Source of the DNA: an uncultured virus (IMG/VR IMGVR_UViG_2660238585_000005)
Taxonomy: Duplodnaviria; Heunggongvirae; Uroviricota; Caudoviricetes
Virus record (IMG/VR): IMGVR_UViG_2660238585_000005
DNA: 64,000 nt
Strand: one strand, 5' to 3'
Within the stretch, counting starts at the first letter, position 1. Each line of letters opens with the position of its first letter. The notes under the pieces are model-generated. The model was given only the letters and a program-made list of their open reading frames with translations, searched no databases and had not been told where the DNA came from. Of this stretch, positions 24,761-57,860 are shown one piece after another. Both the position numbers and the translations under genes were made by a program.

Positions 24761-24798
24761 AAATAAAAAAGAACCCTTTTAAAGAGTTCTTTTTTATT
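24761..24798. terminator. Terminator after Mn-catalase
   Basis: AAATAAAAAAGAAC...GTTCTTTTTTATTT. Confidence 0.75.
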
Positions 24799-24800
24799 TA

Positions 24801-25484
24801 CTATTTTTTTATTGGTTCATTGAAAGAAGGCGGATTAATATCTATCTTTGTATTATGATTGTTAGGTCCCGGACTAGATAAGTCAAAGTATAGTTTAGAG
24901 TCTTCAGTAACTCCAAAGTCTCTATTTGAACCTGTATCTTTAATCTTATTTAATGCATCTCTAAATAAAGCATTATGAGCTTCTTCTCTGTTAAGTAAGA
25001 AGTCTATTGTTTCTCTTACATATTTATCGTCAATTTGTCTATATAAATATTCATATACAACTTTTGCTCTTTGCTCTGATGCTATATTTGATAATAGATC
25101 TGCAACTAAGTCTCCTGTTACAGTAACATAATCAGCAGTCCAAGGTGCTCCTGAAGAGTTTATTAAAAATGGTGATAATCCACTTAATACATGAGTTTCT
25201 ATTTCTCCAGAATCAACTGCTTTATAATCAACATCATGTCCATTTAATAAATTTATTGTTTGAGCAACCATTTCCATATGGCTAAGTTCTTCCGCTGCTA
25301 TATCTAGAAATAAATCTTTTATCTCTTTATCTTTTATTCTAAAGCTTTGAGATAAATATTGCATTGCTGCTTTTAACTCTCCATTTCCTCCTCCTAATTG
25401 CTCTTGCATTAAAACTGCATATTGAGGATTTGGTCTTTCTACTTTTACTTCTCTTAACAATTTTTTATCATGTTTAAACATCAA
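24801..25484 (-). CDS. Manganese catalase family protein
   Basis: EQLGGGNGELKAAMQY, EELSHMEM, REEAH metal ligands. Confidence 0.92.
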   Translation of the reverse strand: MMFKHDKKLLREVKVERPNPQYAVLMQEQLGGGNGELKAAMQYLSQSFRIKDKEIKDLFLDIAAEELSHMEMVAQTINLLNGHDVDYKAVDSGEIETHVLSGLSPFLINSSGAPWTADYVTVTGDLVADLLSNIASEQRAKVVYEYLYRQIDDKYVRETIDFLLNREEAHNALFRDALNKIKDTGSNRDFGVTEDSKLYFDLSSPGPNNHNTKIDINPPSFNEPIKK

Positions 25485-25748: not shown

Positions 25749-26297
25749 TTAAAAATATCTAAAGCTAGTATAAGCTTTATTCATTCTGTCTTGGTCTATA
25801 CCTATATAATGTAAGGTTACAGCTGGAGATGAATGATTAAATATCTTCTGAAGTAATGCTATATCTTTGGTTTGCTTATAGTAATGATATCCCCATGTTT
25901 TTCTCATACTATGAGTTCCTAAACAAGGAACATCGAATAATTCTCCCAACTCTTTTAAAATTACATATGCCCTTTCTCTAGAGATAGGCCTATTATAGTT
26001 TTTACGTGATTTAATTAAAAAATCATCAGGATCCTTGTCCTCTACATAATCTTTAATTGCTCTTTTCAGTATTGGGTTTATCTCTATGAATTTTTGTTTC
26101 CCTGTTTTCTTTTCTCTTAAGACTATTTGCCTTTTATCTTTTACATCATATATCCTAAGCTTCAATATATCTGATACTCTAAGACCTGTATATATACCCA
26201 TCATAAATAGAAGGTAGTCTCTTTCATTTGTCTTTTTTAAATATGAACACATATTTTCTAATGTATCTAAATTTCTAATAGGTTCTACATAGTTCAT
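25749..26297 (-). CDS. Small tyrosine recombinase (catalytic domain only)
   Basis: TGLRVSD, HSMRKT, FNHSS, LHYIG. Confidence 0.92.
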   Translation of the reverse strand: MNYVEPIRNLDTLENMCSYLKKTNERDYLLFMMGIYTGLRVSDILKLRIYDVKDKRQIVLREKKTGKQKFIEINPILKRAIKDYVEDKDPDDFLIKSRKNYNRPISRERAYVILKELGELFDVPCLGTHSMRKTWGYHYYKQTKDIALLQKIFNHSSPAVTLHYIGIDQDRMNKAYTSFRYF

Positions 26298-26344: not shown

Positions 26345-26377
26345 AAAAAAGCCAGGTGAGAAAGTCCTGGCTTTTTT
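26345..26377. terminator. Intrinsic terminator in late leader of prophage 1
   Basis: A6-GCCAGG...CCTGGC-T6. Confidence 0.8.
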
Positions 26378-26419
26378 GAACGTAATAAGTTGTTGCTAAT
26401 AAATCTAATAAATGTAACT

Positions 26420-26546
26420 AGTTTATACTCCATACCGCTACAGAGTGCTCTTAAGAGCCGTAAAGTTATATTGGTGAGGGTTAAAGGGAATCGAACCTCT
26501 TATCTTCTAAATAAATAGCTATTTTGCCATTAAACTATATCCTCAC
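26420..26546 (-). ncRNA. Conserved late-leader RNA: tRNA-like cloverleaf + boxA-like motif + GCGG hairpin (copy 1)
   Basis: GAGGATA-TA-GTTTAATGG...GGTTCGATTCC...CCTCACCA then CGGCTCTT and ACTCTGTA-GCGG-TATGGAGT; homolog at 57050-57180. Confidence 0.65.
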
Positions 26547-26681
26547 GTTGCTAGGGTAAATTTATACCCTAGCCATTATATAAAGATGGGGGTTATTAGG
26601 AAATAAGCAATTGAGTTATTTTAAATTTCCTATACTACTATATTACCACCTCTGAATGTATAAAAAATCTTTACTTTGTCG

Positions 26682-27185
26682 CTAAAATGTAGCCAAAGTG
26701 TTGGCTTTGCTATTATTTTCATTAAATAATGGTAGTTCTTCATAGTTTGGATACAACATACCCATAATTTTATAAACTAATCGCTCTCTTACTGTGTAGC
26801 AATGACTGCGATCCATGTGTAGCTTAAGGCTTATATATTTCATATTATTTTTATTTTTGCTATTATAAAATAATTCAAAGAAATTAGTTTCATTAACATC
26901 TAAGCAACTTAATGAGTTTTCTATTTTCGCTTTCTCTATTTCTTTTTCTAGTTTACTTTGCATCAATTTATCTATTTTCTTCTCTTTATCTATAACCTCT
27001 TTTTCAACAATTCTAGAAATATTATAAGTTTCACTTGTTCTTTCATCATAATTTATAGCTCCACAACCTCTATATCTCATTTTCTCTTTCTTTATATCTA
27101 ATTCTATATTATTTATTTGAGCTTCTAGAAACTTATAATTATGCAATCTTACTTCTACTCTTTTAAATAATTCTTTTTTCTCCAT
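26682..27185 (-). CDS. ArpU/RinA-family late transcriptional activator
   Basis: VEVRLHNY N-terminus, coiled coil, C-terminal sigma4-like HTH; upstream of packaging genes. Confidence 0.8.
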   Translation of the reverse strand: MEKKELFKRVEVRLHNYKFLEAQINNIELDIKKEKMRYRGCGAINYDERTSETYNISRIVEKEVIDKEKKIDKLMQSKLEKEIEKAKIENSLSCLDVNETNFFELFYNSKNKNNMKYISLKLHMDRSHCYTVRERLVYKIMGMLYPNYEELPLFNENNSKANTLATF

Positions 27186-27209: not shown

Positions 27210-27467
27210 TTAATCAATAATATCTTTCATTTCCTCTAGACATTTTTCACATATAAAAATGTTTTTGATGTTTTTTAAATTCTCTTTTGATCCACATAAA
27301 ATACACGAATTATTATGTTTTTTAAGCTTAATAGTTCCATTTTCACATAATATTTCAACTGGATCATTTTCATTTATATTTAACATTCTTCTAAATTCCT
27401 TTGGTATTACGATTCTTCCTAGTGAATCGATATTTCTTACAATGCCTTTATTATTTTTGCCATTCAT
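27210..27467 (-). CDS. abrB: AbrB-family transition-state regulator
   Basis: GIVRNIDSLGRIVIPKEFRRML plus clostridial C-terminal CxxC...CxxC. Confidence 0.9.
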   Translation of the reverse strand: MNGKNNKGIVRNIDSLGRIVIPKEFRRMLNINENDPVEILCENGTIKLKKHNNSCILCGSKENLKNIKNIFICEKCLEEMKDIID

Positions 27468-50668: not shown

Positions 50669-51042
50669 CCCTTCTTGTATTTAATTATAAAAAAGACACT
50701 ATTTTCGAACATTTGTAAATCTTCGTTATATAGTATCCCTCCACCACTTTTAATAGCTTTAAAGTATAAATTTTTATAACTCTTAAATCTTTTATCACTT
50801 ATATTATTACTAAGTAATTTTTCTAAGCAATTCTCAATTTTTTTTACTTCATCATAATCATTCCAAATTATTTTTACTTCTAACTGAACTTGACTTATAT
50901 AGTCAGTTATAATAGGAGTATAATTATAAACTAATGATGGATTATTAATATCTGTTGTAAATATAGGAAATAATCTATTTTCTCCAATTAACTTTACTAA
51001 TTCTTCACTACTATTTATATAGTCTATAATTATATTTTCTAT
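50665..51042 (-). CDS. Tail completion protein with non-canonical ATA start (absent from ORF track)
   Basis: 125-codon open frame IENIIIDYINSSEELVKLIGENRLFPIFTTD...KYKKG* after GGGGAGGGG RBS; fills the gap exactly. Confidence 0.7.
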   Translation of the reverse strand: MENIIIDYINSSEELVKLIGENRLFPIFTTDINNPSLVYNYTPIITDYISQVQLEVKIIWNDYDEVKKIENCLEKLLSNNISDKRFKSYKNLYFKAIKSGGGILYNEDLQMFENSVFFIIKYKKG

Positions 51043-55034: not shown

Positions 55035-56249
55035 CTAAATCATTAACCTTAATCCACTACCTTTGCTCTCTGTATAAATTGCATATCTAAGTGCATCCAA
55101 TACATCATCCCACAGCTTAATAGGTTCTCCCGTTGTTTTATTCCAAGCATACATAAAAATTTCTTTTTTAAATAAATCAGTATGTTCCTTTACTACCTTT
55201 AATTTATTAGTCTTAAATCCTTTTGCTACTACTTCAATTCCACTTAATACTGATTTATCAGCATTTTTAGCTCTTAGACCTTCCTTTTTAAATCTTGCTA
55301 CATGTTCAGGTCTTGCACTATCACAATAAAAAATTATATTTCCATATTTACTTTTTATTGTTTTAGCTACATCTACCCAATAATCAATTTCTTCATATTG
55401 TCTTGCATACTCTCTTAATAAATATAAATTTTCATTATCATCTTTTCCTATAACAACTATAGAACCATGATGTTCATATCCCCAGTCAACACCTGCAAAA
55501 AATTTTACAAAATTTATATTTTTTAAATTACTTTCACTTATGTAATGAATATCTTTTCTAAAGTCTCTATAAACAATTCCTTCTGCAGATACCCATAATC
55601 CCTTTATATCTCTATCATAAAACATTCCAGATGGAGTTGATGCTTTAATATTGTTTCTATATCTCTCACTTAAAAATGTATTCTCATCTAACTCATAGTG
55701 ATAAGCTTGTATTATTTTTCCATCTGCTTTATCTATAAAATTTGATTTTAGCCAGTGTTCTGGTTGATCTGGATTTGTATCTATTAATATTCGTGCTCCT
55801 TCACCAGAACATCTTGCTTTAATTTCATTAAAAACTTCTTCATTTGCCATAGTTCCTTCGTTTATATATGCTCCAAATGAAGTCATCCCTCTTATTCTTC
55901 CTAAATCATTTTTTTTTGAATGTCCAAAACAGCATACTTGAACTCCAAATAAAATAAATCTATTGTGTTTGTCAAACTTAAACTCAATATCATATTTATT
56001 GGTAAGTTCATTTAAAACATTTCTTTGAACTGATCCTAAATCAGCACCTGCTAAAATATATTGAGGTAATGTAATATTTAATTCATCAGCTATCTTTCTA
56101 ACTCTTCTTAATTCATATATAAATAGATCATTATCTAAAATAGTTTTTCCTGTTCTTTTAGCACCATGATTAATTAACATAAAAAAATCGTTGGTCATTG
56201 CAAAGTTCATTACTTCTAATTGTTTTTTATGATATAAATCATTTAACAT
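55035..56249 (-). CDS. Terminase large subunit, PBSX family
   Basis: GAKRTGKT, DTNPDQPEHW, GVDWGY, DALRYA. Confidence 0.95.
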   Translation of the reverse strand: MLNDLYHKKQLEVMNFAMTNDFFMLINHGAKRTGKTILDNDLFIYELRRVRKIADELNITLPQYILAGADLGSVQRNVLNELTNKYDIEFKFDKHNRFILFGVQVCCFGHSKKNDLGRIRGMTSFGAYINEGTMANEEVFNEIKARCSGEGARILIDTNPDQPEHWLKSNFIDKADGKIIQAYHYELDENTFLSERYRNNIKASTPSGMFYDRDIKGLWVSAEGIVYRDFRKDIHYISESNLKNINFVKFFAGVDWGYEHHGSIVVIGKDDNENLYLLREYARQYEEIDYWVDVAKTIKSKYGNIIFYCDSARPEHVARFKKEGLRAKNADKSVLSGIEVVAKGFKTNKLKVVKEHTDLFKKEIFMYAWNKTTGEPIKLWDDVLDALRYAIYTESKGSGLRLMI

Positions 56250-56934
56250 TTATATGTTCCTCTAATTTCGTAAAATATTGATCTATTTTTTCTTCTCTAT
56301 TTTTTTCATTATTAACTATTCTAGACTTTAAGACTTCTATTCTAGCTTTTTGTTCTTCAGTAGCTAAATTAAAATTAGAATTAATCATATTGTCATATTG
56401 CTTAATTAAACTCCTTAATTCGCTCATTGCTCTACTTTGAGCATTAAGAAAAGAAGCTTGTCTATCCCATGCAAATTGAAGTTCATACTCTATCTTTTGA
56501 GATAACTCACTTTGTTCCTCTTTTTTTACTTCTCTTATTATTTCATCTTTTTCAGCAACATACATAATTTTTTGAGCTCTTATTATAGCCGCATACTGTA
56601 TTACAATTTGTTCCCAAAGTATATCTATCTGTTTTTTTTCAACTATAGAATCCATTAACTCTAAAGTTTCATCTGGTAAGTATTTAGAAAAAAAGCCAAA
56701 CTTTTCAGCATTTTTATTTCCTTTTGGGGCTCCATGTCCAACTGCATTTTTATTATTAAGAGGAGCTCCTCCAGTATTCTTAGGTATTCCCTTTCGCCGT
56801 TTTTCTTCAGCCCATTTATATCTACTTATCCATGATTTCAGTGTATTTATATTAATTCCATGATTTTTACATATTTGTTTTTGTTTTATTCCATTTAGAT
56901 AATCTATTTTAGCTAAATCCTTTAAATCTGCCAC
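56239..56934 (-). CDS. Terminase small subunit (YqaS-like)
   Basis: HTH with TLKSWISRYKW; GAP.GNKNA repeats. Confidence 0.9.
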   Translation of the reverse strand: MADLKDLAKIDYLNGIKQKQICKNHGININTLKSWISRYKWAEEKRRKGIPKNTGGAPLNNKNAVGHGAPKGNKNAEKFGFFSKYLPDETLELMDSIVEKKQIDILWEQIVIQYAAIIRAQKIMYVAEKDEIIREVKKEEQSELSQKIEYELQFAWDRQASFLNAQSRAMSELRSLIKQYDNMINSNFNLATEEQKARIEVLKSRIVNNEKNREEKIDQYFTKLEEHINVK

Positions 56935-56959
56935 ATCACCACCTCAATTCTTTGTTAAA

Positions 56960-57000
56960 TAAAAAAGCCACTAATCTTTTTAAGATTTAGTGACTTTTTT
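56960..57000. terminator. Intrinsic terminator in late leader of prophage 2
   Basis: A6-GCCACTAA...TTAGTGAC-T6. Confidence 0.75.
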
Positions 57001-57049
57001 ATTACTATGCATTTAAACATATGAAAACTTGTTGCAAAATAACAGTTTT

Positions 57050-57180
57050 AGTTTATACTCCATACCGCTATAGAGTTCTCAAAGAGCCGTAAAGTTATAA
57101 TATTTGATGAGAATATATGGTTTCGAACCATATTCTACTAATAAATTTAGCTGTTTTCCCATATTAAACTATATCCTCAT
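57050..57180 (-). ncRNA. Conserved late-leader RNA: tRNA-like cloverleaf + boxA-like motif + GCGG hairpin (copy 2)
   Basis: Acceptor GAGGATA/TATTCTC, D arm GTTT/AAAC, T arm TATGG-TTCGAAA-CCATA, 5-nt anticodon loop; then CGGCTCTTTG and ACTCTATA-GCGG-TATGGAGT. Confidence 0.65.
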
Positions 57181-57358
57181 ATATAGATTAAATACAAATC
57201 TATCTTAATTATTTTATATAAAATAATGTAATCGATAGTAAGTAGTTAATATTGTATAATTTCTTTATACTAATATAATATCATACTTACTATCAATTTA
57301 ATTCTTCACTTTTTCCGAAGTTTTTCTAAAAATATATACTCATTCAAGATTAAAATTT

Positions 57359-57844
57359 TTATCTACTATGATTTTCAAAATTATAAAGTGGAAAAATTAT
57401 AGGTATAGATTTTTTTATCATATTTTCTCTTATGGAGTAATACGTATCTTTTCCTACATTCATTTTTAATCCATATACTTGCCAATTTTTTATATTTTGT
57501 ATGTATCTAATATTAAACATTTCATTTTCTTCTTTATTAAAGTTATCTATAGCTCTCTCAACTCGTTTTATACTTACCTCTTTTTCATACTTTAATTGTT
57601 CTAATAACTGTAACTTCTTCTGTTTTTGAATAATTTCTATTTCAACAGGTGAATTTATATTATCACTTTTTTGAACTTTTTCTAAATACTCAGTTGACCT
57701 AAAACCATTGTAATCAAACTTTATAAATTCTATCTCTTCTTCTATACATATAACTTCTCTTTTTAAATCTTTAAATTGATAAAATAGACTTTCAACTTTA
57801 TTAAATAAGTTATGTTTTTTTGATACTTTTACTGTAGTACTCAT
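57359..57844 (-). CDS. ArpU/RinA-family late activator
   Basis: Same architecture and position as 26682-27185. Confidence 0.78.
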   Translation of the reverse strand: MSTTVKVSKKHNLFNKVESLFYQFKDLKREVICIEEEIEFIKFDYNGFRSTEYLEKVQKSDNINSPVEIEIIQKQKKLQLLEQLKYEKEVSIKRVERAIDNFNKEENEMFNIRYIQNIKNWQVYGLKMNVGKDTYYSIRENMIKKSIPIIFPLYNFENHSR

Positions 57845-57860
57845 AATATCACCTCTATTA

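Follow-up and report, generated by a model that had tools for sequence, protein, structure and literature searches.

Late transcription in lambda-type phages begins with the terminated leader PR' - 6S RNA - tR', and in Stx phages tRNA genes lie behind PR'. Known cis-acting antiterminator RNAs include HK022 put, EAR, pLS20 conAn2 and Tn916 canT. In tRNA processing, RNase P, RNase Z and the CCA-adding enzyme all recognise the acceptor/T-arm half of the molecule, and Bacillus subtilis RNase Z acts on CCA-less precursors. In plant mitochondria, according to the available part of PMC1920247, RNase P and RNase Z are guided to their cuts at mRNA ends by t-elements, in a series that grades from tRNAs through tRNA-like folds to acceptor-like stem-loops. 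In staphylococcal phages with RinA, ArpU or LtrA-C as regulators, the available part of PMC3753634 places regulator-specific repeats after the regulator gene, followed by a stretch, terminator included, that is common to phages with different regulators. Here we describe a late-operon leader that carries a tRNA-derived cloverleaf and a conserved 47-nt block and that occurs twice in a 64,000-nt stretch of DNA from an uncultured virus of the Caudoviricetes (IMG/VR record IMGVR_UViG_2660238585_000005), hereafter the window. Copy 1 is the leader of prophage 1 (26 kb region) and copy 2, the main subject, is that of prophage 2 (57 kb region). Full-text literature searches, with subscription journals and supplements outside their scope, yielded no account of a tRNA-like element or conserved RNA block in a late leader of a Gram-positive phage.

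On the minus strand, prophage 2 has the order late regulator, 5' hairpin, cloverleaf, block, intrinsic terminator and terS, and the flanking genes are all on the minus strand as well (Table 1). A 9-nt linker separates the cloverleaf from the block, and a 48-nt spacer the block from the terminator. The reading that we tentatively favour is that the cloverleaf is a tRNA-derived RNase P/Z processing cassette, like the plant-mitochondrial t-elements, placed in a terminated late-operon leader. Much of the anatomy had been noticed in a first-pass annotation of the window, and was confirmed. The same order is present in both prophages, despite regulators of only 30% identity and packaging genes of different type (Terminase_4 / TerL_ATPase in prophage 1, phrog_509 terS / Terminase_6N in prophage 2). 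The block, noted as about 50 nt long and nearly identical, agrees between the copies in 47/51 columns, from TATAAC to AAACTA, or in 47/57 with the variable linker included. The reported G-U to A-U change in a hairpin stem is located at positions 6 and 15 of the second hairpin of the block, where copy 1 has G-U and copy 2 has A-U. Finally, both the stem parse and the fold reproduced the acceptor, D and T arms, the 5-nt anticodon loop and the TCA end.

The cloverleaf was found to be the minimum-free-energy fold of copy 2, at -13.3 kcal/mol. All four stems have the canonical lengths of 7, 4, 5 and 5 bp: the acceptor stem has 7/7 pairs (one G-U), the D stem 4/4, the anticodon stem 5 bp and the T stem 5/5, with 0 stem mismatches. 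The T loop, UUCGAAA, fits UUCRANY, and the D loop, 2 nt longer than that of relatives, contains the GG in AAUAUGGGA. An ordinary anticodon loop has 7 nt with U33 and a purine at position 37; that of copy 2 is AUUUA, 5 nt long and without U33, and the 3' end has A and then UCA instead of CCA. With such a loop, the copy-2 tRNA appears to have lost normal decoding. It retains the acceptor stem and T arm within a non-canonical tRNA-like fold, as a t-element-like structure would. ARAGORN, from which the first-pass annotation had expected a call of pseudo or undetermined, returned instead tRNA-Lys(ttt) at 57106-57179, using a 7-nt reading of the loop with A32 and A33; annotators should be warned that this "tRNA-Lys" is not expected to be a working tRNA. 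No match to the Rfam tRNA family RF00005 (gathering score 29 bits) was obtained at E<=10 for copy 2 or its twin L076.

Homologous leaders place copy 2 in a series. An exact 20-mer of the block was found in 37 stretches of viral contigs, and further leaders were collected by looser scans, two regulator-based scans, a pattern search, a covariance-model search and one metagenome scan; two 14-mer scans gave mostly chance matches, which were filtered by script. Among the 112 genomes searched, all from the family around a Romboutsia match, the block pattern was found in 4/112 and the block covariance model R1 in 6/112, at 7 places. The pattern scan of genome contigs gave 0 matches. In the isolated phages of the phage collection, the block is absent and copy 2 has no match; the only match to copy 1 there is 62 nt of tRNA sequence in a single Bacillus phage, which is present as two records. 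The neighbouring recombinase and the copy-1 regulator cluster bear the source name Paraclostridium (Paeniclostridium) sordellii, and the leader appears to be widespread in prophages of the family that includes this species.

Block-bearing leaders were grouped by eye into 11 classes, and ARAGORN reports a tRNA in 9/23 representative leaders. Three classes contain ordinary tRNAs with 7-nt loops that both ARAGORN and Rfam accept (Lys UUU and Glu UUC, also Ser UGA and Pro UGG), with Rfam scores of 56.7-61.9 bits for L176, L228, L241, L024, L036, L032 and L268; the tRNA-Glu of L300 scores only 34.5 bits. The copy-2 type has a 5-nt anticodon loop, type B a 3-nt loop (42-48 bits), and type A, which includes copy 1 of the window, a 6- or 2-nt loop (30-34 bits). 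Type D, the insertion type, has about 60 extra nt in the anticodon/variable region (42-44 bits). In the two minihelix classes (L267/L269/L296/L297 and L278), an acceptor-like stem encloses the T arm only, and the two tRNA-less classes (L290 and L305) contain no tRNA remnant. A 5' hairpin, ending a few bases ahead, precedes the tRNA, tRNA-like element or minihelix in 22/22 leaders examined, with very different sequences, and is absent in the tRNA-less L290. The slot is also used by other RNAs: L266, a Romboutsia prophage with the same regulator family, has a minihelix without a recognisable block, and in L285 and L288, where the regulator is a related one, the slot is filled by an unrelated type-II tRNA-Ser(GCU) with a hairpin before and a terminator after it. 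RNA cargo, of which the tRNA is one case, thus appears to be accepted in the stretch from the late promoter region to the leader terminator.

Two further observations concern the tRNAs of these leaders. One tRNA body (L024, L032, L036, L268) occurs with the anticodons UUC (Glu), UGA (Ser) and UGG (Pro), and a second body (L176 vs L228) with UUU (Lys) or UUC (Glu). Between L024 and L036, 3/7 loop positions are changed vs 2/68 elsewhere (Fisher p = 0.005); this fast loop change among intact tRNAs could be anticodon switching or relaxed constraint. In L022, L027, L291 and L307, the approximately 60 extra nt in the cloverleaf contain, by eye, a sigma-A-like TTGAYG-17-TATYWA just before the T arm.

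Is the shape of the cloverleaf selected? Structure counts were made on 25 distinct tRNA-plus-block sequences, in which 94.2% of cells pair vs 36-54% in slid controls. Two-sided changes were observed in 8/33 pairs (5.1 +/- 1.2 in shuffles, 6/500 of which reach 8) and the covariation was 0.181 vs 0.100 in shuffles (0/500 reach it), both comparisons overstating significance, since the sequences are related. Two-sided changes affect 4/5 pairs of the T stem and 3/5 pairs of the anticodon stem, and acceptor pair 4:69 runs through the series G-C, G-U, A-U. The T stem is only 50-60% identical between seven class representatives and is still paired. Within the cloverleaf, only one strand of the T stem is less conserved than the anticodon loop, which is 56% identical between classes; across the classes this loop ranges from 2 to 7 nt, is interrupted by the insertion or is gone. 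The minihelices of three diverged lineages differ by compensated pairs, both in the acceptor stem (GCAAGU/ACUUGC vs GCACAU/AUGUGC) and in the T stem (UGUUGG/CCAACA, GCAGG/CCUGC and GCAAG/CUUGC). L301 shares the type-B anticodon arm with its 3-nt loop, and its T-stem pair 50:64 is switched from A-U to U-A. In shape-only forms, CCA is replaced by UCA, CAA, AAA or AUA. The 5' hairpin that accompanies the tRNA part in 22/22 leaders, with its changing sequence, also speaks for selection.

Our reading of these data is that the shape, above all the acceptor/T-arm half, is probably under selection in most lineages, copy 2 included, and is dispensable. The first-pass annotation had proposed selection "for shape, not decoding". 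This description suits copy 2, which keeps its four stems without normal decoding, and agrees with the pairing count and the compensated minihelices; it does not suit the intact tRNAs, the eroding lineages or the tRNA-less L290 and L305. The outcome that it had named as contrary, ordinary tRNAs decaying at random, was encountered by half: intact tRNAs (57-62 bits) are present among the homologues, and some lineages erode further, with acceptor- and T-stem mismatches of the copy-1 type. As a separate observation, which covers the window and all 25 homologues, the first 13 nt of the cloverleaf (GAGGAUAUAGUUU, 57166-57178) are 100% identical between classes and the opposite acceptor strand 75%, which is more than a tRNA shape demands.

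The same annotation had put the cloverleaf at the centre of the module. Comparison of the leaders moves the centre downstream: their constant core is hairpin 2 plus AUAAAC, which is also present without any tRNA. Hairpin 2 has the form ACTCU(G/A)UA-GCGG-UAUGGAGU and is paired in 99-100% of cells across the homologue alignments. Its exchanges (U-G/U-A, G-U/A-U/G-C and C-G/G-C, with C-G to G-C in L278) fit an RNA on the sense strand, the single exception being G-G in L269, and the tail is 100% identical among 7 class representatives. To judge from these exchanges, the block behaves as RNA on the sense strand. The regulators encoded upstream of it are of several kinds (phrog_36 types 1 and 2, RinA-like with 145 aa, and sigma-region-4-like); since the block does not vary with the regulator family, it is probably not a site specific to the regulator. 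By script, 19/23 leaders have a terminator after the block, and the remaining 4 have a hairpin and U5 by eye; this terminator abuts the first late gene. Shuffling of the window gave 0.00 expected matches to the gapped block pattern, which itself matched copy 1 only, its first gap being too narrow for copy 2. No Rfam family (Rfam 15) matches the block, and no likeness to described antiterminator RNA families was found.

Three roles for the block are equally possible on this evidence, namely antitermination in cis, 5' stabilisation, or action as a small RNA whose end is set by the terminator. In position it resembles an antiterminator, being a structured sense-strand RNA between the putative promoter and the terminator at the head of a long operon. 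Other candidate roles were considered and dropped. A boxA/nut-like function of hairpin 1, suggested by the resemblance of GCUCUUUGAGAAC to boxA, was abandoned, since L300, L305 and the minihelix leaders have no 5' arm of hairpin 1; the one related genome searched for 16S rRNA, as a guide to a host rrn leader, gave none. A 7-bp pairing between UAAACUA of the tail and UAGUUUA of the D arm was likewise dropped, the tail being equally invariant in minihelix and tRNA-less leaders that have no partner for it. A search for tail-complementary targets gave 16 matches at <=2 mismatches vs 19.6 expected. A cos/pac site was rejected because the block is common to prophages with different terminase types, and for classical attenuation no upstream complement of the terminator 5' arm was seen by eye. 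In L022, L291 and L293, a tandem copy of the short hairpin with AUAAA, reading ACUC(A/G)UGUUGAGU-AUAAA, stands ahead of the normal hairpin 2. The hairpin-plus-AUAAAC block is a compact, highly conserved and unannotated RNA at the switch point of late transcription, across differing regulators and packaging machines, and a concrete candidate for studying terminator passage in the late operons of Gram-positive temperate phages.

In the processing scheme, a Lys/Glu-type tRNA gene, always preceded by a hairpin, occupies the site between the putative regulator-dependent promoter region and the block. RNase P would cut the 5' end of the cloverleaf and RNase Z its CCA-less 3' end, and the inserted cargo would thereby be removed. 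The upstream RNA would then end in the 5' hairpin, and the downstream RNA would start a few bases before the block, which would be the constant working part, acting as RNA ahead of the terminator. Excision would restore a promoter-block arrangement similar to that of the two tRNA-less leaders, in which about 25-60 nt separate the promoter-like motif from hairpin 2 downstream of it. We infer both cleavages by analogy with t-elements; an RNase P/Z signal fits the minihelix series and seems the best available mechanism. Should the cloverleaf serve as a processing handle, phages would have a counterpart of their own to organellar "tRNA punctuation" and to the t-element principle, and a tRNA gene would have been turned stepwise into an RNA-processing signal, through full tRNA, loop-less cloverleaf and minihelix. 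A more elaborate proposal joins the two parts into one new RNA device of the prophages of this clostridial family, in which a self-excising tRNA-derived cassette, pared down in some lineages to an acceptor/T-arm minihelix, is combined with a hairpin-plus-AUAAAC RNA that would let RNA polymerase pass the leader terminator and later late-operon terminators by means of host machinery, with no specific phage protein. Antitermination through host machinery would explain why the block stays constant while regulator families change; we nevertheless regard the complete device as unlikely.

RNA evidence consists of assembled contigs from 4/14 listed runs, from which RNA ends are unreadable. In run X1, one contig spans 56200-57110 (terS, terminator and block) and the next ones cover 57288-57531 and 57522-57860. 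Positions 57111-57287 are left uncovered, and the first contig stops at 57110, 2 nt before the discriminator; this is a single study in which DNA carry-over is possible. Runs X5, X6 and X7 gave pieces only elsewhere in the window.

Several findings weigh against a selected processing signal. Cleavage at the cloverleaf was not observed, contigs of this kind being unable to reveal ends. The energy of the copy-2 cloverleaf alone is ordinary (z = -1.73; 12/200 shuffles fold as well), and therefore the case rests on comparison, not on energy. Copy 1 of the window is eroding, with a T-stem mismatch plus acceptor mismatches. The acceptor mismatches of the copy-1 type, A-C and A-A, occur in 10/25 and 18/25 sequences at pairs 5:71 and 7:69, leaders of this type have an extra base at the T/acceptor junction, and the acceptor end of L308 is broken. 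L290 and L305 do without any tRNA. Moreover, L286, L289 and L277, which have the same regulator family, possess the promoter motif, terminator and late gene and neither tRNA nor block; therefore neither part is needed for late expression in general. The Rfam scores fall from 62 bits to below detection, a series that also fits plain decay, and the compensatory changes may predate the loss of decoding.

Plain decay is the most probable of the competing explanations. It would make the cloverleaf a dying phage tRNA gene in the late leader, with only block and terminator mattering and the shape kept for lack of time. Intact tRNAs in sister prophages and the graded fall of the Rfam scores speak for it, as do the mismatched or indel-bearing stems of type A, L219, L048, L308 and copy 1 of the window, and the tRNA-less leaders L290 and L305; the unrelated tRNA-Ser(GCU) of L285/L288 shows in addition that the slot accepts tRNA cargo. 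Random decay does not readily explain why the three or four separate degenerate lineages (copy 2, A/B and the insertion type) all have their lesion in the anticodon arm or loop and keep the other stems paired. Nor does it account for the three lineages of minihelices in which the acceptor stem is new and fully paired and the T stem is compensated, for the T-stem pair switch of L301 within the loop-less B lineage, or for a copy 2 without any stem mismatch. On balance, we consider neutral decay somewhat doubtful as the full explanation.

A second possibility is that the anticodon region of the cloverleaf is still in use, either for some unorthodox decoding or to divert anticodon nucleases from the tRNAs that they attack or to replace those tRNAs. 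Lys(UUU) and Glu(UUC) tRNAs are classical targets of these nucleases, ARAGORN reads UUU (Lys) in copy 2, the intact relatives are Lys(UUU) and Glu(UUC), and the loops of the C-type tRNAs change faster than the body, as given above. A decoy would, however, need the part read by the nuclease to be kept, and the loop is the part that is poorly conserved between classes: it is 5 nt without U33 in copy 2, 3 nt in B, 6 or 2 nt in A, split in D and absent in the minihelices. By the rules of tRNA identity, serine tRNAs have a long variable arm; the occurrence of one body with Glu, Ser and Pro anticodons, its "Ser" form without such an arm, argues against faithful charging. The decoy for tRNA-targeting nucleases suggested in the first-pass annotation is thus disfavoured, and action through the anticodon region as a whole is highly improbable. 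The conserved pieces could also act as DNA, the block being a regulator-binding palindrome with a -10 box (TATAAA), or a joint for recombination of phage modules, and the cloverleaf being irrelevant. In keeping with this, GAGTATAAAC holds a -10-like hexamer, hairpin 2 is near-palindromic, and the module is common to prophages with at least 3 regulator types and different late genes; the available part of PMC3753634 reports that the staphylococcal ltr-terS intergenic region is near-identical between phages with different regulators. However, where hairpin 2 departs from perfect complementarity, it has G-U wobbles that exist only on the sense strand and would be C-A on the other, and the constancy of the block under changing regulator families speaks against a specific site for them. 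The terminator stands between block and gene, leaving about 25 nt for a promoter in copy 2, and a recent exchange of the entire module is hard to reconcile with the comparison of copies 1 and 2, which are near-identical at either end and diverged in the middle. A DNA role is accordingly very unlikely.

How does the processing cassette compare with the systems introduced above? Like t-elements as presented in the available part of PMC1920247, the series runs from canonical tRNAs through non-canonical cloverleaves, in which the T arm is conserved, to acceptor-like stem-loops alone, and its members would likewise be embedded in longer transcripts next to mRNA ends. Unlike t-elements, it belongs to a bacterial prophage and to one slot, the late-operon leader, with a 5' hairpin before it and block and terminator after it, and its cleavage would follow by analogy. 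The relation to ordinary phage tRNA genes (RF00005) is one of descent: sister leaders hold true members, with 57-62 bits and an encoded CCA, and copy 2 descends from these, the first 13 nt being exactly shared, whereas copy 2 itself differs in its loop, in UCA for CCA and in having no Rfam match.

Lambda-type and Stx leaders share with the present one a promoter (here a putative one) beside the late-regulator gene, a short terminated leader to be passed and tRNA cargo. The difference from lambda is that the regulator is RinA/ArpU/sigma-region-4-like (by weak matches) and not Q, and that antitermination is here only a candidate. A small RNA derived from the leader is possible and may be compared with StxS, as described in the available part of PMC7547250. 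With put, EAR, conAn2 and canT, the block has in common a sense stem-loop RNA between promoter and terminator at the head of a long mobile-element operon (the available part of PMC11658703). It differs from them in lacking sequence or model similarity (Rfam) and in its length of only about 47 nt. A put- or canT-like antiterminator role is possible by this analogy; relatives without the block that keep the terminator speak against it. The staphylococcal ltr-terS region, in the available part of PMC3753634, likewise has the regulator gene directly upstream of terS and a stretch constant across regulators, but the word "tRNA" is absent from the main text of that paper, and the staphylococcal terminator is placed there before the terS promoter, whereas the terminator here abuts the ribosome-binding site. 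Beside these staphylococcal arrangements, L228, L241 and L300 were seen to have at least 5 direct repeats GTACGATTYGT just after the regulator gene, which resemble the regulator-binding repeats of staphylococcal phages in the available part of PMC3753634.

Table 1. Positions of the two leaders, their parts and neighbouring features in the window
Feature	Position	Strand	Details
Late regulator gene, putatively Ltr-type, 161 aa (prophage 2)	57359-57844	minus	phrog_36 "transcriptional regulator", E=1.4e-17; phrog_248 "transcriptional activator"
Promoter-like region (prophage 2)	57267-57296	minus	consensus scan candidate TTGATA-18-TAGTAT; by eye also TGATATTAT; AT-rich stretch
Inverted repeat, 11 bp (prophage 2)	57234-57244 / 57284-57294		GATAGTAAGTA / TACTTACTATC
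5' hairpin (copy 2)	57184-57203	minus	fold -4.4 kcal/mol; ends 4-5 nt ahead of cloverleaf
tRNA-derived cloverleaf (copy 2)	57105-57179	minus	discriminator A 57108; UCA 57107-57105; T loop within GGTTCGAAACC at 57119-57129
Conserved block, 47 nt (copy 2)	57049-57095	minus	ACUUUACGG, weak hairpin 1 (57078-57086), hairpin 2 (57057-57076), single-stranded tail AUAAACUA (57049-57056)
Intrinsic terminator (copy 2)	56961-57000	minus	A-tract, 13-bp hairpin, U6; ends 26 nt ahead of terS start codon
terS, first late gene (prophage 2)	56239-56934	minus	GTG at 56934; phrog_509 small terminase, E=6.9e-89
Copy-1 leader (prophage 1)	26345-26573	minus	5' hairpin 26550-26573; eroded cloverleaf 26473-26546; block 26419-26466; terminator 26345-26377
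Copy-1 regulator gene (prophage 1)	26682-27185		
MazE-like antitoxin gene (prophage 1)	27210-27467		
Short integrase-family ORF, 182 aa (prophage 1)	25749-26297		
Mn-catalase-like moron (prophage 1)	24801-25484		

The regulator of prophage 2 matches Pfam DUF1492 weakly, below cutoff (E=0.013). RinA TIGR01636 matches the copy-1 regulator below cutoff (E=0.0037) and gives no match to that of copy 2; the copy-1 regulator cluster is named "putative sigma factor" in one source, and the regulator profile searched against solved structures gave no match below E=0.03. The regulator here may accordingly be of the RinA/ArpU/sigma-region-4-like kind, these matches being weak. The promoter-like region is taken as the late promoter, and we infer transcription to start there; motifs related to it occur at the same place in relatives with and without tRNA, and in the consensus scan promoter-like sites were not commoner than in shuffles. 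The inverted repeat that flanks the copy-2 promoter-like motif could serve as an operator or regulator site. As a further observation, a promoter-like motif (consensus near TGRTAATATAGTAGTATAGRAA) and a terminator before the first late gene recur behind phrog_36-type regulators in L286, L289, L277 and most other leaders, even without tRNA or block. In these phages, late expression may generally include passage of the leader terminator.

The region 56950-57048, which includes the copy-2 terminator, folds at -23.5 kcal/mol (z = -4.53; 0/200 shuffles as good). A purpose-made terminator scan recovered this terminator at 56963, while the standard consensus scan missed the leader terminators, the loops or GC content of which are outside its rules. 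With the purpose-made scan, terminator-like hairpins were also detected between late genes, for example at 50693 and 40121 and, in prophage 1, at 24767, 24174 and 23615.

In prophage 1, the cloverleaf of copy 1 scores 29.7 bits with the Rfam tRNA model, against the gathering score of 29, and ARAGORN reports none. The first gene after the leader of prophage 1 is the short integrase-family open reading frame (ORF), followed by the Mn-catalase-like moron, and the MazE-like antitoxin gene lies just upstream of the prophage-1 regulator.

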